Shown here: positions 1 to 56,034 of the stretch, in pieces | Layout of the letters: every line of letters starts with the position of its first letter | Position numbering within the stretch: the first letter of the stretch is position 1 | Assembly: GCA_947628905.1 (NCBI GenBank) | Contig: CANRBQ010000001.1 | Coordinates: 6,900 to 70,899, forward strand | Length of the DNA: 64,000 nt | Direction of reading: 5' to 3' | DNA from: an uncultured Bacilli bacterium | GTDB taxonomy: Bacteria > Bacillota_I > Bacilli_A > RF39 > UBA660 | Program-made: the position numbers and the translations under genes | The notes under the pieces: model-generated | What the model was told of the DNA's origin: nothing | Databases searched by the model: none | What the model saw: the letters and a program-made list of their open reading frames with translations, nothing else

Positions 1-136
1 AGATTTGTAAAATAGTACTAGGTGATTAATTAATAATTTATAAGGAAGTTATTTAAATGGATAATAGTATCTTAAAGCATATGGGAACACTATAGTTTTT
101 GCATTTTTGAGAAAATTATAGATTGGAGATGAGATA

Positions 137-1186
137 ATGAATAAATTAGAAGAGCAAAATAATTTATTAATATATAAAAATAAAGATGGCGATATAGTTG
201 TTGATGCAATCTATAAAAATGAAACTTTATGGCTTACACAAAAAGCTATGGCTAAAGTTTTTGATGTTGGGGTGTCGGCAATTTCAAAACATTTGAGAAA
301 TATATTTGATGAAGAAGAATTAAATGAGAGTATGGTTGTTTCCAAAATGGAAAATACCACTAAACATGGAGCAATTAGAGAAAAGACACAAACAAATAAA
401 GTTAAGATTTATAATTTAGATGCTATAATTGCAGTTGGTTATCGAGTTAATTCTAAAAAAGCAACTGAATTTAGAATATGGGCAACTAAAGTGCTTAAAG
501 AATATATGATAAAAGGTTTTGCTTTAAATGATGATAGATTTATAAATGGTAATAAATTTAGCACACAATATTTTGATGAATTACTAGAAAGAATTAAAAC
601 TATTAGAGTAAGTGAAAGAATGTCTTATCAAAAAATTACTGATTTGTTCATTGCAACATCATCTGATTATAATCCAAAAACTGAAGAAGCATACACATTT
701 TTTAAAGTTGTGCAAAATAAATTGCATTACGCGATAAGTGGATATACTGCTGCTGAATTAATTTATACAAGAGCTAATGCTAATGAAGAAAATATGGGAC
801 TAACTAATTGGAAAAATAGTCCTGATGGCTTAATATATAAATACGATGTTTCTATAGCTAAAAACTATTTAACTGAAGAAGAGTTGAATAAGTTAAATCG
901 TCTAACTTTAGCCTTTTTAGATTATGCAGAAGATATGGCATATGAGCACACAGTTATGACTATGAATGATTGGATAAATGCAACGGATAAATTATTAAAA
1001 TTTAGAGAAAAAAATATTTTGACTCATTCTGGTAAAATAACTCATAAAAAAGCAATTGATAAAGCTGAAAGCGAATATGAAAAATATAGGGTAATTCAAG
1101 ATCAAAAATATATATCTTCAATGGATGAATTTTACAATATATATCTTAAAGAAAGCCGCGATTCAATCAAATGGAAAATAATATGA
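137..1186 (+). CDS. RhuM-family (virulence protein RhuM-like) protein
   Basis: Strong RBS GGAGATGAG upstream. The N-terminal region (IYKNKDGDIVVDAIYKNETLWLTQKAMAKVFDV...NLDAIIAVGYRVNSKKATEFRIWATKVLKEYMIKGF) matches the conserved core of RhuM/PF13310-type proteins as I recall it. Confidence 0.6.
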   Translation: MNKLEEQNNLLIYKNKDGDIVVDAIYKNETLWLTQKAMAKVFDVGVSAISKHLRNIFDEEELNESMVVSKMENTTKHGAIREKTQTNKVKIYNLDAIIAVGYRVNSKKATEFRIWATKVLKEYMIKGFALNDDRFINGNKFSTQYFDELLERIKTIRVSERMSYQKITDLFIATSSDYNPKTEEAYTFFKVVQNKLHYAISGYTAAELIYTRANANEENMGLTNWKNSPDGLIYKYDVSIAKNYLTEEELNKLNRLTLAFLDYAEDMAYEHTVMTMNDWINATDKLLKFREKNILTHSGKITHKKAIDKAESEYEKYRVIQDQKYISSMDEFYNIYLKESRDSIKWKII

Positions 1187-21453: not shown

Positions 21454-21524
21454 TTCTTTAATTTAATTGTAAAATCTTGCAATTTATATTGAATAATAAA
21501 TAATAAATATGGTATAATAATATT

Positions 21525-21700
21525 ACCTAGAGGATATAGTTTATTTTACATAAAACCGACTATGAGATAATTTAGGGAGAATAATTATATATGGAGTTGA
21601 ATGCTGGTCTTGATTTGCCAGAATCCAGAAGTATATATGTTTCTTACCACCTGCGAGCGCGCGGGATTTTATCGACAAATAGACTTTCCTCTGGGTTTTT
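21525..21700 (+). ncRNA. candidate structured small RNA of about 175 nt, class unknown (6S-like architecture?)
   Basis: Promoter TTGAAT at 21489-21494, 18-nt spacer, extended -10 TGGTATAAT at 21510-21518. The 5' end ACCTAGAGGA (21525-21534) is perfectly complementary, with one G-U, to TCCTCTGGGT (21687-21696), which is followed by T5. An internal GC-rich segment CCACCTGCGAGCGCGCGGG is highly atypical for this genome. No ORF. The downstream gene has its own extended -10 (TGTTATAAT, 21705-21713). Confidence 0.35.
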
Positions 21701-21726
21701 AATTTGTTATAATATAATTGGTGGTA

Positions 21727-49472: not shown

Positions 49473-50702
49473 TTAATGTTCATTTATTTTAAATTTAACT
49501 TCAAAAGTAGTATATTCATCTTTGGAGTAAGCTTTAATATTACCATGATGGGATGTGACAATATTTTTAGCAATAGCAAGACCTAACCCATAACGGCCAC
49601 TTTTACGATTATGACTTTTATCATTCCGGTAGAATCTTTCAAATATTTTTTCACATTCATCGGGTGGTATTGGATCACCTTTATTAATTACTTCTAATTT
49701 TATTTCTGATTTGTTACTTATTAGATTAACTTTAATTGTACTATTTTCTTGGCCATGACTTATCGCATTATCAATTAAAATAGATACTAATTCATCTATA
49801 CTTTCTTTATGGCAAAGAAAGCTTATTTTTTCGGCTATATTGGTTTCGATAGTTATGTTTTTTTCGTAAGCTAAACTTTCAAATGTTAAGGCTCTTTTTT
49901 CAATAATTAGCGAAATATCATTTTTACTAAAGTTCTCTTTTTTTAAATATTCAGTTTTAGATAAATCAAGTAATCTTGTTATTAAATTACTCATTCTATC
50001 AGATTCACTTTTTAAATTATTAATCCATTTTTCATTTTTTTTATTCACATCTAAAGAATCTATATTGGCCATCATAACTGCCAGTGGGGTTTTAAGTTCA
50101 TGAGAGGCATTGGCAACAAATTCTTTTTCTCTATTAAAGCTCATCTCAACAGGTTTAGTAATCCATTCTGTTATTTTTTTAGATATAATATAAATAATAA
50201 ACTCACCAATAATAACTAATAATAAAGATATTAATAGATTAGTAAGTAACATATTTCTTGTGTTAGTTATATTTACAATAGTTAAAGAATTACTTTCTTC
50301 ATAATTGTAAGCATATTTATTCCAATATAAACAACCTATTTTTATTTTATTGGTATTATTAGCAATAATATTTTTAGCTTTAGTTATAATATCATCACTA
50401 ATTGGATTATCACTATGGCTTATTTTATCAATAATATCATTATTATCATTTAAAATAAAAGTATAAACTTCATAATCCATAACTTTTCTATTTCGAAGTT
50501 CATCATCATTTATTGGTTTCATTTCTTTATTAAAAGATTCAGGTCTTTTTATAGTTAAATTTCGCATTCTTGTTAAATTATTTAATATTCCTGTATATTC
50601 TCTATGGTAGGTTTGAATATTAAAAAAGCTAGCAAAAAACATAGCAAATAAAGAGATTATAATAAAAATTGTAAAAAATGTTTTCTTCTTTAAATTTTCC
50701 AT
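49473..50702 (-). CDS. sensor histidine kinase (CssS-like)
   Basis: Two TM helices flank an extracellular loop. HisKA motif ANASHELKTPLAVM and an HATPase_c domain. Confidence 0.85.
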   Translation of the reverse strand: MENLKKKTFFTIFIIISLFAMFFASFFNIQTYHREYTGILNNLTRMRNLTIKRPESFNKEMKPINDDELRNRKVMDYEVYTFILNDNNDIIDKISHSDNPISDDIITKAKNIIANNTNKIKIGCLYWNKYAYNYEESNSLTIVNITNTRNMLLTNLLISLLLVIIGEFIIYIISKKITEWITKPVEMSFNREKEFVANASHELKTPLAVMMANIDSLDVNKKNEKWINNLKSESDRMSNLITRLLDLSKTEYLKKENFSKNDISLIIEKRALTFESLAYEKNITIETNIAEKISFLCHKESIDELVSILIDNAISHGQENSTIKVNLISNKSEIKLEVINKGDPIPPDECEKIFERFYRNDKSHNRKSGRYGLGLAIAKNIVTSHHGNIKAYSKDEYTTFEVKFKINEH

Positions 50703-50708
50703 ATCTCT

Positions 50709-51386
50709 TTATTCCTCCATTTTATAACCTAAATTACGAACTGCTTTAATATTTACTTTTGAGCCAATAATTTTGATTTTCTTTCTTAAAAAAGAAAGGT
50801 AAGCTTCTAAATTATTAGATTCATAATCATTATCAATTCCCCAAACTTTATCATAAATTTGTTCCTTTGATACAATTTGTTCTTTATTATTCATAAAATA
50901 TTCAAGTAATAGAAATTCGCGATAAGGAATATTTATTGACTCATTTGTAATTGTACAAGTTAAAATAGAAGTTCTAATATTTAATGATAGATCACTATAT
51001 TCTAAAATATCTTTAATTTTATGATTACCCTTATTTCTTAATTGGACATTTACGCGAGCAATTAATTCTTCAATATGAAAAGGTTTGGTTACATAATCGT
51101 CTGCACCATTATTAAAGCCTTTTAATTTATCTTCTAATTCTGATTTGGCAGTAAGCATAATAACTTTAGCACTTATATCATTTTCTTTTATTTCTTTTAG
51201 TATTTCTATCCCATTCATTTTAGGTAACATGATATCAAGAATTATTAAATCATATATGTTAGATAAAGCATTATATAATCCATCTTCACCATCAAAACAA
51301 GTATCAACTTCATATTTTTCATATCGCAGTTTTGTTGCAATAACATCAGCGATTGCCTCTTCATCTTCAACAACTAAAATTCGCAT
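50709..51386 (-). CDS. OmpR-family response regulator (CssR-like)
   Basis: Receiver domain MRILVVEDEE...DLIILDIMLP plus a winged-helix C-terminal domain. Confidence 0.9.
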   Translation of the reverse strand: MRILVVEDEEAIADVIATKLRYEKYEVDTCFDGEDGLYNALSNIYDLIILDIMLPKMNGIEILKEIKENDISAKVIMLTAKSELEDKLKGFNNGADDYVTKPFHIEELIARVNVQLRNKGNHKIKDILEYSDLSLNIRTSILTCTITNESINIPYREFLLLEYFMNNKEQIVSKEQIYDKVWGIDNDYESNNLEAYLSFLRKKIKIIGSKVNIKAVRNLGYKMEE

Positions 51387-51512
51387 TTTACCACCTCTTA
51401 TCTTTTATTGCCAAATAAATTAATTGTTTAATTTATTTTAAAAGTTTCTGCATTATTTATCAATACTTTTTCTCCTTTGCTTTTTTAATAATTAAAGTAT
51501 ATATTATGAAAA

Positions 51513-51532
51513 TTAAAGAAACATTAAAAACA
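51513..51532 (-). promoter_or_regulatory. direct-repeat motif site 3 (upstream of the response-regulator gene)
   Basis: ATTAAAGAAACATTAAAAAC, one A shorter than sites 1 and 2. About 127 nt upstream of the response-regulator start. Confidence 0.5.
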
Positions 51533-51635
51533 TAAGTTATAACAATATTATTTTATAATAATTATATCAAATAATAAGTAAATTTTATATATAGTTTCTA
51601 TATAAAAAAAGCTCTCTTATTAAGAGAGACATTTT

Positions 51636-53147
51636 CTAATTAAATCTTTTTCTAAATTTATAAGCTCCACCGACACCTGCAATAGCACTAATTGCTAAAA
51701 CTATATATACTCCTATATTATCAGATGTACCTGGATTTTTTATATCTTGTTCATCTACTTTTACAAATTTAGCATATACTGTCATACTTTTTGAAATTGG
51801 ATTAGTAGTATAGAATAAATTTTCATATGTATCTTCTAAATACCAACCACTAAAAGCATAACCTTCTTTAGTAACTGTTGGAATATCTTTAGGATCTAAT
51901 ACTGCTCCTGCATCAACTCCTACTGATGTACTTTTACCATCATAAACAAATGTTACATAATATCTTGATGAAGAAGTGGAATTTTTAATAAATTTAGCAT
52001 AAACAGTTTTATCGGCAGTGATACTTGAAGTAGTACCAAATAAATTTTCATAAGTTTGGTCTTCATACCAACCAACAAATGTGTAACCACTTTTAGTAGG
52101 TTTTGGAATATCAGCTTCTGCTACTGCTGTATTATTTTTAACTAAAACAACATTATGCTTTCCATATACAACAAAGTCAACATAAAATTGGTCTTCTTCT
52201 CCCGAAATTAATTTTCCTGTTATAGTAGTATTTTCTGTTTCAAATGAATTATCATTTGTGTTATTAGCATTATATACAGCTCCGTAAGAGTCATTTGTAT
52301 TGCTAAGTGTAGAATCAGATACAGTTATTTGTGCTCCACTAGCTTTATCATTAGCATCGCTTATCAATATTAAATCACTTCTAGCAGTACCATAAGTAAA
52401 ATCATTTGTTATTGTGGAATTATTAGTTATATCAATTGTAACGCCTGTTTTATTACCAATAACTATAGTTCCAAAATTGTTATTATCGCCATTTCCAATA
52501 GCGTATCCTGTAAGAGTACTATGATTAATAGTAACTTTATTGCCTGATGTTGGGTTTGAACTTGAAGTTAAATCGAGGGCAGCATATCCAGAAAGTTCAC
52601 TATCTGTAACATTTAAATTACTATTGGAACTTGGAAGCCAAACAGCATATTTAGCGTGAATTTTAGAACTAGTAATGTTTATAGTTGAGCCATTTCCTGA
52701 TGAATTATTTACAACAATACCTGTACCATTATAAATATATTCTGATGGAGTATTATTATCTCCACTATAGATAGTTGCATTAGATATAGTTACATTAGCT
52801 GGGGTATCAACTGAAATTAATTTTGGAGCTTCTCCTCTACCAGGGTCAGTTGATGTTATTGTTAAATTATTAAAAGTAACATCAGTTGCTTCAGCAGTAA
52901 TAGTAAAAGTTCCATGCACTGTTGCTCCATTACCATTAATTGTAACGTTGCTACTAATTGTATATGTAGCGGTGTTATAAGTATTTCCTGAATCTAGTTC
53001 GATGACAGAACAACTACTTAAAGCAGTAGCTAAATCACTTTCATTAGTCGGATTACAATTTGGCGCTGCATATACATTGGACATTGCTACAATACCACTT
53101 AAACCAAAAGCAGCAAGAGCACCAAGTAATAAATTTTTCTTTTTCAT
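51636..53147 (-). CDS. cell-surface protein with signal peptide, beta-helix-like region, two Listeria-Bacteroides (Flg_new) repeats and a C-terminal sorting-signal-like anchor
   Basis: Signal peptide MKKKNLLLGALAAFGLSGIVAMSNVYA. A T/N/S-rich region with NxTI periodicity. Two Flg_new repeats (GYTFVGWYEDQTYENLF...TVYAKF and GYAFSGWYLEDTYENLF...TVYAKF). C-terminus NPGTS, then a hydrophobic stretch, then KFRKRFN. Confidence 0.7.
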   Translation of the reverse strand: MKKKNLLLGALAAFGLSGIVAMSNVYAAPNCNPTNESDLATALSSCSVIELDSGNTYNTATYTISSNVTINGNGATVHGTFTITAEATDVTFNNLTITSTDPGRGEAPKLISVDTPANVTISNATIYSGDNNTPSEYIYNGTGIVVNNSSGNGSTINITSSKIHAKYAVWLPSSNSNLNVTDSELSGYAALDLTSSSNPTSGNKVTINHSTLTGYAIGNGDNNNFGTIVIGNKTGVTIDITNNSTITNDFTYGTARSDLILISDANDKASGAQITVSDSTLSNTNDSYGAVYNANNTNDNSFETENTTITGKLISGEEDQFYVDFVVYGKHNVVLVKNNTAVAEADIPKPTKSGYTFVGWYEDQTYENLFGTTSSITADKTVYAKFIKNSTSSSRYYVTFVYDGKSTSVGVDAGAVLDPKDIPTVTKEGYAFSGWYLEDTYENLFYTTNPISKSMTVYAKFVKVDEQDIKNPGTSDNIGVYIVLAISAIAGVGGAYKFRKRFN

Positions 53148-53173
53148 TTCATTATTTCTCCTTTTTCATTTAT

Positions 53174-53201
53174 ATTATATAATATACCCCCCCCGCGTCA
53201 A
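53174..53201 (-). promoter_or_regulatory. promoter TTGACG-N16-TATAAT with a G8 homopolymeric tract in the spacer (phase-variation candidate)
   Basis: Minus-strand sequence: TTGACG at 53201-53196, C, G8 at 53194-53187, TATATTA, TATAAT at 53179-53174. RBS AAAGGAG and ATG at 53147. Confidence 0.6.
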
Positions 53202-53257
53202 TTTTTATTTTTAGTATCTTGACACATTTTGTGTATATTTTAAATTAAATGTTATAT

Positions 53258-54205
53258 TTATTTTTTTAATAGTCTTAACTTATCTTTCATTAAAAAAGCA
53301 TTATTAGTATTTATTTCTAAATTTTTTAAAAAAGCAAAAACTTCTTCTTCACTTATTACATTTTTATCATGAAAGCTTTCACTAATAGCGTCTTCTAAAG
53401 AAAAACCATAACCATAGTTACATCTACCTACTATTTCTGCTTGAAATTTATCTAAATAATCTTCTGTTATAGTACTATGATCTAACTTGGGTTGAGTTTC
53501 CATTATTTCCCATTTTAAAGTGGCAAGTTTTTCTCTTAATTCATCTCTTAGTTCATCAAGGCTTTTAGGAGAATTTTTAGCAATAGAATAGTTTTTACCA
53601 ATATTAAAATAAAATTTATTACCATATTGTTCTACACCTATTGGAACTATATCTACTCCTGTTTCTTTGGCCATTCTAACTGTGCCATTAAATATTTTCA
53701 TAACTACTAAATTAGGAGTTACATTCCAAGCTCCTTCAGGATAAATTAAAAGATTACCACCTTTATTTAATAATTCTATAGCCCGATTATAAGCAATTTT
53801 TCGATCTTCTCTATCTTTAGTTTCAAGTGGTATTACTCCATTCATTTTTAAGCCTTGATAAATAGGCATTTTATATAATATTCCAGGATCTCCTAACATT
53901 AAATAGGCTGGTTCATTAATAACTTGAAAGGTTCTTTGAATATCATTTCCTCCAATATGAGTACAAGCATATATTTTAGGTTTATTAGTTTTTATATGTT
54001 CATCTTTTATTACAACTATTTTTTCTTTAGATAACAACTCATCTATTTTAAGAATTAAAGAAACTAAAAAATAGATTCTTTTTCTTAAATTAATTCCTTT
54101 TAATTCTTGTCCATTACGATAATTTTCTTTTCTTAATTCTGAGTAATATTTTACTAATTCTTCAATTGCCATATTTCTTTTTTCTATTATATTTAATTTA
54201 TTCAT
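53258..54205 (-). CDS. lysophospholipid acyltransferase (PlsC/LPLAT) family protein
   Basis: HX4D motif (CTHIGGNDIQ) and PEGAW-like motif (YPEGAWN). Confidence 0.6.
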   Translation of the reverse strand: MNKLNIIEKRNMAIEELVKYYSELRKENYRNGQELKGINLRKRIYFLVSLILKIDELLSKEKIVVIKDEHIKTNKPKIYACTHIGGNDIQRTFQVINEPAYLMLGDPGILYKMPIYQGLKMNGVIPLETKDREDRKIAYNRAIELLNKGGNLLIYPEGAWNVTPNLVVMKIFNGTVRMAKETGVDIVPIGVEQYGNKFYFNIGKNYSIAKNSPKSLDELRDELREKLATLKWEIMETQPKLDHSTITEDYLDKFQAEIVGRCNYGYGFSLEDAISESFHDKNVISEEEVFAFLKNLEINTNNAFLMKDKLRLLKK

Positions 54206-54448
54206 GTTGTTTTCTCCTAGTAATTTATTATAACAATAATTATATATATTTTAAATATTAAATTAAATATACTCATAATATTTAATTTATAAAATAATTC
54301 TAAATTCAGTATATCAAAAAAATAAAAAATTGCAATTAAAAAATGCAAGGAGAGAGCCCTGCATATATTTCCCTGCCCATACATAAAAATTTAGAGCAAT
54401 ATGAGCAAGTGTTTTGTATTTTAATTTATTTTCTAATTCCATACTTCG

Positions 54449-55999
54449 TCAAGAGACTTCGTATGGAGTATCTTTTGTTCCATCTCCCGTAAACGTTGTA
54501 TCAGCCTTCAGATTTATTACTGGGCGCACACCATACGCGCTGTTCACGCTGCTCATGTTTGTGCTGCCGAGGCCGCCACCCGTATCCACACGGAACATGC
54601 GAGCATTAGTGCCGTAGATATACGGAGACATGTTCCAATAGTACTGACCGGTATATAACCAATAGCCATAGTTTTGTTGACCACCTAAGCCTCCTGCCAT
54701 AATTACTTCATCCATGGTTATTAAGCCTACTGGTGTTGTTAACTTATTGTTTCCTTTTATTTCATTTCCTTCACTATCTGTTGTTCCTTGAGCACTAGGT
54801 CCTGTGAACAAGTCTCTCTCTTGAGCATCCTTATCTGTAGTACCTTTTGTTACATCATATCCACACTTTAATGTTGGTTCTTGGGTTGAATCATAATTTG
54901 TTCCTGCATCATGTGTCCTATGATATCCTGCATATGCTGTTTGAGTCTTATCATATCCTGCTTTTGATTCTTTTGCACCAAGATAACTTCCATGATTTTC
55001 TGGTGATAATTGTCTATCGCTACAAAATCCTGTTTCTACATCTATTTTATCCCTGAATTGTGTTTGTATTCCAGAATTTCCTTCATACCATTTATCTATT
55101 TCTTCTTTTATTGTACTATCATAATTATTCTCATGAGCTTGAGCATAACTAGTTGTTGGATTAGATTCACTACTAACACTACCTGACTCAGCAGTTCCAA
55201 ACATGTAACCTACATATTTATTATCATTATAGTAATCATTAAATGCGCTTTTTGTTGCTCCTGTACTAGTCTTTATCGCGGCATTATCTCCTGTATTACC
55301 CCATTTTCCCTCACTTGGTTTTGTTGTTCCAGCATATATTAACCTTATTGTTCCATTGCCATTTATTCTGATGATTCTCCAATACATGTTGGCAAAATGT
55401 ACCCAGTTATTATCTACTGTTCCACGGAATACATAACTCTTTCCATAGTCATCTGTTGTTTCATATACTCCTTTATCTGTAGATGTACAATTTCCACTAG
55501 TATGCCCTGAATTATTTGTATTATCATCACATGCATATTTATCTATAGTGGTTGACAAATTTCCAGCTTTTTTTAATCTTAAATTATCTAAAGTTTTTTC
55601 TGATAGTGTTTTCTTTTTACTAAAATACAAAGTACATTTATCCATTTTCTTTAAATTAGCAAATGTATGATTTCCATTTATTGTCTTTAATATTGCTCCT
55701 GTATCTTTAGTATTATCATCTATCATACATTTACTATCTTCTTCATTTATTTCATATCCTGTTGTTGGTACTTCATCTACTTCATCATAATTTCCTGTAT
55801 CATTTTCTTGATATATTTTTACTATCTTAAAATCATATGGTTGATATGATACTTTACCTTTTACTATTTGAACACTACTGGTTACTTGATATTTTGCTCT
55901 TGAACTTAAAGAAACTATAGTTGTTGTTATTGCTACTAACACAACTAAAACTAATAATACTTTTTTAGTATTATTATGCCCTAACCTATTAAATTCCAT
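54449..55999 (-). CDS. membrane-anchored secreted protein with C-terminal DUF1566/Lcl-like (C-type-lectin-fold) domain
   Basis: N-terminal signal anchor KKVLLVLVVLVAITTTIVSL. G/T/D/Y-rich ectodomain. C-terminus YWLYTGQYYWNMSPYIYGTNARMFRVDTGG...AYGVRPVINL resembles the terminal sVRCV/VRPV motif of DUF1566/Fib_succ_major lectin-like domains. ATG at 55999 (MEFNRLG) is preferred over the TTG at 56029. Confidence 0.5.
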   Translation of the reverse strand: MEFNRLGHNNTKKVLLVLVVLVAITTTIVSLSSRAKYQVTSSVQIVKGKVSYQPYDFKIVKIYQENDTGNYDEVDEVPTTGYEINEEDSKCMIDDNTKDTGAILKTINGNHTFANLKKMDKCTLYFSKKKTLSEKTLDNLRLKKAGNLSTTIDKYACDDNTNNSGHTSGNCTSTDKGVYETTDDYGKSYVFRGTVDNNWVHFANMYWRIIRINGNGTIRLIYAGTTKPSEGKWGNTGDNAAIKTSTGATKSAFNDYYNDNKYVGYMFGTAESGSVSSESNPTTSYAQAHENNYDSTIKEEIDKWYEGNSGIQTQFRDKIDVETGFCSDRQLSPENHGSYLGAKESKAGYDKTQTAYAGYHRTHDAGTNYDSTQEPTLKCGYDVTKGTTDKDAQERDLFTGPSAQGTTDSEGNEIKGNNKLTTPVGLITMDEVIMAGGLGGQQNYGYWLYTGQYYWNMSPYIYGTNARMFRVDTGGGLGSTNMSSVNSAYGVRPVINLKADTTFTGDGTKDTPYEVS

Positions 56000-56034
56000 T
56001 TTCTTTTCCTTTATTATCCTTTCTATCAATTATA

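Follow-up and report, generated by a model that had tools for sequence, protein, structure and literature searches.

A poly-G tract in the promoter spacer of a beta-helix/Flg_new surface-protein gene as a probable phase-variation element in uncultured gut Bacilli

Within the 64,000-nt stretch of an uncultured Bacilli genome analyzed here (contig CANRBQ010000001.1; hereafter the window), the minus-strand promoter of a gene for a 503-residue exported surface protein contains a homopolymer of eight guanines (G8) in the spacer that separates its -35 and -10 hexamers. We consider it probable, from the promoter sequences of the window and its homologues, that this tract acts as a slipped-strand phase-variable or 'volume-control' promoter element of a single-gene surface-protein unit, of the type described for porA, tp0126, and hifAB. 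Phase variation had been proposed for this site in an earlier sequence-only reading of the window, and the proposal is supported in every part that is open to sequence data. The significance of the tract derives from its position and its recurrence in homologues, not from its statistics in a single window.

Promoter architecture and the G8 tract

The promoter reads TTGACG-C-G8-TATATTA-TATAAT on the minus strand (53201-53174), exactly as the sequence-only reading had given it, and the near-consensus character attributed to it is borne out by a consensus scan, in which the site scores 11/12 and ranks among the two best promoter-like sites in 6 kb. Promoters of the sigma-70/sigma-A type work best with a spacer of 17 nt. 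With the present G8 the spacer measures 16 nt, and with G9 it would reach the optimal 17 nt, as had been claimed.

The GC content of the 64-kb window is 26.0%, and the G8 is its sole G/C run of at least 7, the next longest being 6. Tandem Repeats Finder reported no other notable simple repeat in the 64-kb window, which leaves the G8 tract as its only candidate switch. A known RNA element is not the explanation, since an Rfam search of the whole window finds nothing at the promoter.

Repeat retention and spacer length in the homologue promoters

The homology search yielded a 12-protein clade in which identity to the query is 40-57% and identity between members 38-67%, and whose loci come from metagenome-assembled genomes (MAGs) of rabbit-gut 'uncultured Bacilli' and from ENA and Logan assemblies; a metagenome scan with the protein-family alignment returned pattern matches and no confirmed relative. 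The genomic neighbourhoods differ between these loci. We found a simple repeat in the same promoter spacer in nine of the 11 lineages examined, as poly-G in seven (G7 to G11) and as (TA)n in two (Table 1). The -35 hexamer is conserved as TTGAC(A/G/T) throughout the homologue promoters examined, with the one exception of TTGATA in L029. The repeat-bearing spacers measure 14, 15, 16, 16, 17, 17, 18, 19, 19, 20, and 20 nt, and the repeat-free ones are fixed at 16-17 nt. The promoter of the outgroup P0014 is identical in all nine contigs that hold it whole, a tenth contig beginning inside it.

Table 1. Promoters of the window gene and of its homologues.
Locus	-35	Repeat	-10	Spacer (nt)
Window	TTGACG	G8	TATAAT	16
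L001	TTGACG	G9	TATAAT	17
L006	TTGACG	G9	TATAAT	18
L034	TTGACG	G10	TATAAT	19
L007	TTGACA	G10	TGtTATTAT	20
L008	TTGACA	G7	TATAAT	14
L009 (=L016, L017)	TTGACA	G9	TGtTATTAT	19
L010 (=L012, L013)	TTGACA	G11	TGaTAATAT	20
L033 (52% GC contig)	TTGACA	G9	TATACT	16
L028	TTGACT	(TA)11	TATAAT	17
L032 (closest homologue)	TTGACA	(AT)9	TATAAT	15
L030/L031	TTGACA	repeat-free	TGTATAAT	17
L029	TTGATA	repeat-free	TATAAT	16
Outgroup P0014 (32% identity)	TTGACT	repeat-free	TGaTAATAT	17

In a neighbor-joining tree, poly-G occupies the deepest branches, and the (TA)n and repeat-free states are nested among the poly-G lineages. Throughout the ~212 kb formed by the window and the homologue loci, all G/C runs of at least 7 and all dinucleotide repeats of at least 6-7 units lie directly 3' of TTGAC. 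That some lineages carry another kind of repeat in this place speaks for selection acting on mutability, not on a site specific to G. Taken together, the G-run kept in genomes of 22-32% GC, the swap of the repeat type, and the release of the spacer from a fixed length point to selection for mutability at this position.

Three homologue loci deserve separate mention. L033 (Logan SRR20337161) carries a family member of 42% identity behind TTGACA-N7-G9-TATACT on a 52% GC contig, so that the arrangement of gene plus poly-G promoter exists in an organism of very different base composition, through either horizontal transfer of the unit or very old conservation. L011 (3981-5111) holds a family member that lacks the N-terminus (it starts near residue 80) and is frameshifted, and which is therefore probably a pseudogene. 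The string 'GGGAGGGGG' at 3981- in the same locus was rejected as a tract and is a ribosome-binding site; a second TTGACA-N9-G8 lies directly downstream of the family member, at the extreme contig end.

In L029 (homologue P0012, Logan ERR14656744), a 20-codon leader open reading frame (ORF), MQKLETIDAV(RE)n, precedes the gene (625-761) and contains (AG)11 at 655-676. A strong hairpin with a T-run (730-761) comes next, and then the gene's own TTGATA-16-TATAAT. We rejected the (AG)11 as a promoter-spacer repeat, as it lies inside the small leader ORF and the TTGAC next to it is probably coincidental. In a simulation of other repeat numbers, 10 or 13 AG units place the leader stop 8 nt inside the hairpin, and 8, 9, 11, 12, or 14 units place it 42-50 nt before the hairpin. 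The geometry is the same as that of the leader-peptide/terminator phase switch of pil1 in S. gallolyticus (PMC3894217).

Tract-length variation among close relatives

Two contigs are identical or nearly identical to the window: L002 (100%) has G8, and L001 (99.6%) has G9. A second pair consists of L034 (6x coverage) with G10 and L006 with G9, the encoded proteins being 91% identical and the promoter cores otherwise identical. Such single-G differences between close relatives are suggestive of length variation, the pairs being few and the coverage low. In addition, several assemblies are broken at such tracts, with part of the G11 run forming the start of contigs L014 and L015 and part of a TTGACA-N9-G8 the end of L011. 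These breaks are compatible with mixed tract lengths in the population and do not amount to proof. The sequence-only reading had named a tract that is invariant across strains as what would speak against phase variation; we found instead the G8/G9 and G9/G10 pairs and a range of G7-G11 across seven lineages.

A further homopolymer was observed at the outgroup P0014 loci (L018-L027, e.g., L019:4358-4367), where the family gene and a convergent dnaJ are separated by a segment with an A tract, TTTATTGAC-A(n)-GACAATAAA. Four contigs have A8 there and five have A10, and the repeat-free promoter of the same gene is invariant. Differences in homopolymer length between samples are therefore detectable in these data.

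Poly-G promoters across metagenomes

We scanned metagenomes with the pattern TTGACR-N0-7-G(8 or more)-N0-10-TATAAT, to which tracts shorter than G8 are invisible, and found such a promoter on at least 120 contigs with GC contents from 23% to 68%. The analyses of these contigs are exploratory and were drawn from the matches listed; downstream genes were called by a simple heuristic of ribosome-binding site and ORF, and start codons and signal peptides were likewise called heuristically. Among these matches, 43 of 66 downstream ORFs (65%) have an N-terminus resembling a signal peptide or transmembrane (TM) segment, vs 109 of 591 other ORFs on the same contigs (18%), an enrichment of 3-4 times with an odds ratio of 8.3 (p = 1e-14); after clustering, the same holds for 27 of 48 families. 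The products include lipoproteins, Flg_new proteins (L068 and L101, and by eye the 2649-aa product of L099), and a type IV pilin-like protein. Among ten contig groups whose flanks are identical, five vary by a single G, and in eight of 56 whole contigs the motif is no more than 60 nt from a contig end, vs 2.2 expected (p ~ 0.0015). Within the limits of the heuristics, these analyses agree with the reading of the tract as a contingency locus.

Some of the matches resemble the window promoter closely. On a human-gut contig of 28.5% GC (L104:2216-2243; also L058, L067, and L121), the promoter TTGACA-T-G8-TATATTATATAAT equals that of the window at 26 of 28 positions and has behind it the gene of an unrelated exported protein (619 aa) to which Pfam assigns no family. 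The low-GC contigs L047, L054, L059, L080, L140, L145, and L150 have TTGACAACCT-G8-T..TTTATATAAT upstream of homologues of the 619-aa protein. Such near-identity of promoters suggests a lineage-typical module that may be reused for different surface proteins. Furthermore, L072 contains tandem paralogous genes for small exported proteins, each with its own TTGACA-Gn-AATGTGATATAAT promoter (G8 and G9, at 669-695 and 1406-1433), and the pair looks like a multi-copy family whose members would be independently switchable.

Proposed mechanism and alternative explanations

G/C homopolymers of eight or more slip during replication. We propose that the G8 tract would serve as a hotspot of slipped-strand mispairing in the -35/-10 spacer of a sigma-A-type promoter, where the gain or loss of a single G would change the spacer (15 nt with G7, 16 with G8, 17 with G9, and 18 with G10). 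Such a change would alter the distance and the rotational phasing of the hexamers and hence the binding of RNA polymerase, so that the descendants of one cell would differ in how much of the protein they make, in a heritable and reversible way, either on/off or as a graded 'volume control'. For the window allele, at 16 nt, we predict activity below the maximum, for G9 the maximum itself, and for tracts of at most G7 or at least G10 weak or no expression. The benefit would be a heterogeneous surface protein facing host immunity, phage, or changing glycan niches. In this scheme we infer the slippage rate and the reversibility of the change, the site at which transcription starts, the consequence for expression, and the source of selection (host immunity, phage, or niche).

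Several observations weigh against this interpretation. First, the G8 taken alone departs only modestly from chance: 0.11 G8/C8 runs are expected per window from dinucleotide-preserving shuffles, and six of 100 shuffles have at least one (p~0.06), so that the sequence-only reading, which called the run highly non-random, overstated what the statistics of this one window show. Second, the G9 of L001 comes from ~1.9x coverage and is accompanied by a T>A mismatch 3 nt past the tract, for which reason a sequencing error is possible there. Third, no length difference was found between L012 and L013 (both G11) or between L016 and L017 (both G9), assemblies that possibly share overlapping data, and an unrelated promoter group on low-GC human-gut contigs has G8 in seven of seven contigs among the matches listed. 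Fourth, several homologue consensus spacers are 18-20 or 14 nt long, all of which would be weak or off under a pure spacing model, and L007, L009, and L010 possess an extended -10 (TGn), which is less dependent on the -35 and whose assignment as the -10 is uncertain. Alleles that often lie one to three steps from 17 nt would mean that the low state is often dominant, as is common for contingency loci; where an extended -10 is present, factors besides spacing could also be at work.

These last points bear on the idea that a hypermutable tract tunes expression mainly by means other than spacing, namely through open-complex formation, use of the extended -10, or a regulator adjoining the -35, a mode proposed for tprL of T. 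pallidum and opc of N. meningitidis. In its favor, the TGn motifs of L007, L009, and L010 lie 19-20 nt from TTGACA, the homologue consensus spacers are seldom 17 nt, and the poly-G/C tracts of tprL and opc do not work through spacing (PMC7864442). We nevertheless regard it as unlikely: in the window, L001, L006, L008, L028, L032, and L033 the tract sits cleanly between good hexamers 14-18 nt apart, the repeat-free homologues keep the same hexamers at exactly 16-17 nt, and the (TA)n replacements are sensible only as length elements.

If the poly-G were instead a fixed cis-element, such as a G/C-tract operator or a GC-rich spacer that tunes promoter strength, the differences in length would be ordinary divergence. 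The stable length in replicate assemblies of two lineages and in the seven contigs of the unrelated promoter group would fit this explanation. However, the tract varies from G7 to G11 despite conserved hexamers, single-G differences are the sole change in otherwise identical promoter cores, the (TA)n of two lineages is unexplained by a G-specific binding site, and no regulator is syntenic, the two-component system of the window being absent from the homologue loci. A fixed element thus appears improbable.

A neutral homopolymer without function, arisen by chance, would have to occur in seven diverged lineages (23-52% GC) at one and the same place in the promoter, with no other G/C run of at least 7 in the flanking ~212 kb, and an unselected G8 would be expected to decay in an AT-rich genome; even with a run of this kind in six of 100 shuffles, we consider chance very unlikely. 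That the tract or its length variation is an artefact of sequencing or assembly, for instance through homopolymer miscalls, is the least credible explanation: two-colour Illumina chemistry does give poly-G artefacts and poor quality after G runs, the variant contigs have low coverage (1.9-6x), and contigs break at the tract, but the existence of the tract is no artefact because it is internal, with unique flanks, in many independent NCBI, ENA, and Logan assemblies, and single lengths may be off by one.

The encoded surface protein and its transcription unit

The gene behind the G8 promoter forms a one-gene transcription unit, as it has its own promoter and its own hairpin of the intrinsic-terminator type (Table 2). 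Its product is probably an exported beta-helix/Flg_new surface protein, likely wall-anchored. The sequence-only reading had described an exported protein with a signal peptide, beta-helix-like repeats, Flg_new repeats, and an anchor, and this description holds in the light of Pfam, AlphaFold, Foldseek, and sequence motifs.

Table 2. Features of the promoter, gene, and product in the window.
Feature	Residues	Window position	Strand	Basis
-35 hexamer TTGACG, 5/6 match to TTGACA		53196..53201	minus	sequence read and consensus scan
C between -35 and tract		53195	minus	
G8 homopolymer GGGGGGGG (C8 on the plus strand), proposed slipped-strand hypermutable tract within the spacer		53187..53194	minus	
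TATATTA between tract and -10		53180-53186	minus	
Full spacer C-G8-TATATTA, 16 nt		53180..53195	minus	
-10 hexamer TATAAT, 6/6		53174..53179	minus	
Putative transcription start, ~7 nt downstream of -10		~53167	minus	inferred
Ribosome-binding site AAGGAG, 10 nt ahead of ATG		53158..53163	minus	direct sequence read
Controlled gene, 503 aa		51636..53147	minus	ORF list; ATG at 53147
Signal peptide	1-27	53067-53147	minus	
Predicted right-handed beta-helix	~47-315		minus	
Flg_new/InlB B-repeat 1	~321-389	51981-52187	minus	
Flg_new/InlB B-repeat 2	~396-464	51756-51962	minus	
NPGTSD sorting-like motif		51720-51737	minus	
Hydrophobic segment, 19 residues		51660-51716	minus	
Basic tail KFRKRFN		51639-51659	minus	
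Terminator-like hairpin CTCTCTTAATAAGAGAG then CTTTTTTTAT T-run, 8 nt past the stop codon		51603..51628	minus	

The N-terminus, MKKKNLLLGALAAFGLSGIVAMSNVYA followed by AP, resembles a typical Sec signal peptide with probable cleavage after VYA. Pfam assigns two stretches to Flg_new (PF09479, Listeria-Bacteroides repeat; E 1.6e-18, 67 bits vs a gathering cut-off of 27), and its scan of the product gave no match to a beta-helix family. The AlphaFold model, built on 12 homologues, has a mean pLDDT of 82.9 and shows a series of short strands at residues ~48-310, two beta-rich domains, and a C-terminal helix. In a Foldseek search against the PDB, the InlB B-repeat 2y5p superposes with a TM-score of 0.87 and an rmsd of 1.5. 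The right-handed beta-helix matches have E values of 3e-4 to 1e-2 with TM-scores of only 0.2-0.46, and they include tailspike 2 (TSP2) of phage CBA120, polygalacturonases, a pectate lyase, the binding region of L. reuteri SRRP, and the S. pneumoniae adhesin PfbA.

At the C-terminus, NPGTSD is a non-canonical sorting motif; N-P-x-T-x-D is semi-conserved among the homologues, and two of them have VPKTG. No sortase gene was identified in the 64-kb window, and in the homologue locus L016/L017 a sortase gene and a SpaA/TED adhesin gene lie immediately upstream. Sortase-like wall anchoring of the product is plausible on these motifs.

An exact-protein look-up of the 503-aa product returned nothing; the homology search did return an identical protein, P0001. 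The contigs L001 and L002 both end at window position ~53114, within the signal-peptide codons, and L003 begins with 149 nt that have no aligned counterpart in the window upstream of 52113. This pattern (window 52113-53114) suggests strain-level divergence or mosaicism in the beta-helix part of the gene.

Comparison with known systems

Among the precedents that the sequence-only reading had cited, hif, as hifA/B, stands closest to the window together with porA and tp0126, and opa is not apt. Neisseria opa varies via CTCTT repeats in its coding region, not via promoter spacing. The poly-C of opc overlaps the -35 box (PMC7864442). In porA, hifA/B, and tp0126 the length of a repeat in the spacer sets transcription (PMC3899988, PMC7864442).

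In porA of Neisseria meningitidis, as in the window, a poly-G lies in the sigma-70-type spacer of a surface-protein gene; in porA a change of 1 nt alters the transcript level, with an optimum at 17 nt (PMC3899988; PMC7864442). The porA system is experimentally demonstrated and belongs to an outer-membrane porin of a Gram-negative pathogen, whereas the present one is known from sequence alone and belongs to a wall-anchored-type beta-helix/Flg_new protein of low-GC gut Bacilli. The tp0126 gene of Treponema pallidum, an OmpW homologue, likewise has a poly-G between -35 and -10 that is optimal at 17 nt (PMC7864442). Within isolates, lengths of 7-11 G occur side by side, and of 17 genomic poly-G tracts most are variable (PMC7864442). 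T. pallidum differs in being a pathogenic spirochaete whose GC-rich genome has many G tracts, and its tprL tract, which overlaps the -10 region, does not work through spacing.

In hifA/hifB of Haemophilus influenzae, a TA repeat sets the -35/-10 spacing (PMC3899988), and the same layout is found in L028 ((TA)11, 17 nt) and L032 ((AT)9, 15 nt). The hif promoter is bidirectional and comes from a Gram-negative pathogen; the promoters described here are unidirectional, and that of the window has poly-G instead of TA. The nearest Gram-positive gut precedent is the pilus of Bifidobacterium breve, a Gram-positive gut commensal in which a slipping G tract controls a sortase-dependent surface structure (PMC9187656). 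Maximum Depth Sequencing was used there to quantify the populations of tract lengths, which shift in vivo (PMC9187656). In B. breve the tract is intragenic, acts by frameshift, and lies in a high-GC genome, in contrast to the window tract, which lies in a promoter spacer and would act on transcription.

Mycoplasmas are low-GC relatives of the Bacilli. Both vlp of Mycoplasma hyorhinis and fim of Bordetella pertussis differ from the window in the repeated nucleotide and in the gene families concerned. They resemble it in having homopolymer tracts (poly-A and poly-C) in the promoters of variable surface proteins (PMC3899988).

Wider significance

Nearly all that is established about slipped-strand phase variation comes from pathogens, such as Neisseria, Haemophilus, Campylobacter, Helicobacter, Treponema, and the mycoplasmas, and the known switches of gut commensals are mostly invertible promoters. 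A 2025 review asks whether the apparent restriction of repeat-based phase variation to pathogens is real or a bias of the databases (PMC11868660). The locus described here provides a concrete, testable case in uncultured rabbit-gut Bacilli that bears on this question. A repeat that is kept across 38-67% protein identity, swapped in type, and accompanied by a spacer freed from 16-17 nt is evidence of a kind that can be harvested at scale from metagenomes.

It is tempting, though for now a tentative proposal with somewhat less than even prospects, to view repeat-controlled promoters as an old and widespread device of commensal gut Firmicutes/Bacilli for varying their surface proteins, and not as a specialty of small-genome pathogens; one beta-helix/Flg_new family would then have stayed under stochastic control through deep divergence and exchanged devices (poly-G in seven lineages, (TA)n in two, and the (AG)n leader of L029). 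Our literature searches, incomplete in coverage and hence weak as evidence of absence, turned up neither this gene family nor, for these Bacilli, a poly-G switch in a promoter spacer. The mechanism itself is not new; within the literature covered, the organism group, the gene family, and the retention of a repeat across the family with a change of its type appear to be undescribed. If the phase-variable reading of the G8 promoter is true, the surface-protein repertoire of these commensals would be stochastically heterogeneous, which would bear on colonisation, immune recognition, and phage susceptibility, and the consensus sequences of assembled MAGs would under-report such states.

Gene neighborhood in the window

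The window surrounding the G8 promoter is ordinary chromosome, with housekeeping-looking ORFs (their N-termini judged by eye) and a 6S RNA (RF00013, 52.3 bits) at 21521-21701 on the plus strand, which is the sole Rfam match at the gathering threshold in the window. A megablast search of window positions 51000-55000 against a plasmid collection gave no match. Upstream of the surface-protein gene lies an acyltransferase gene (53258-54205). Downstream of it are a response regulator and a histidine kinase, which form a two-component system (49473-51386), and an ORF that we take to be HtrA-like from its translation, read by eye and not from a domain scan. The two-component system was considered as a partner regulator and rejected, as it is not syntenic in any homologue locus.

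Farther upstream, on the minus strand at 54449-56029, a 526-aa ORF with a TM segment at its N-terminus matches nothing in Pfam, and its promoter is a fixed TTGACT-17-TATAAT (56088-56060). BLAST at 1e-5 detected no similarity between this ORF and L148, which has a poly-G promoter and is found on human-gut contigs; the C-terminal ending of the ORF (...GDGTKDTPYEVS) and its WRII motif resemble those of L148 (...GGSGTSTDPYTLGL).

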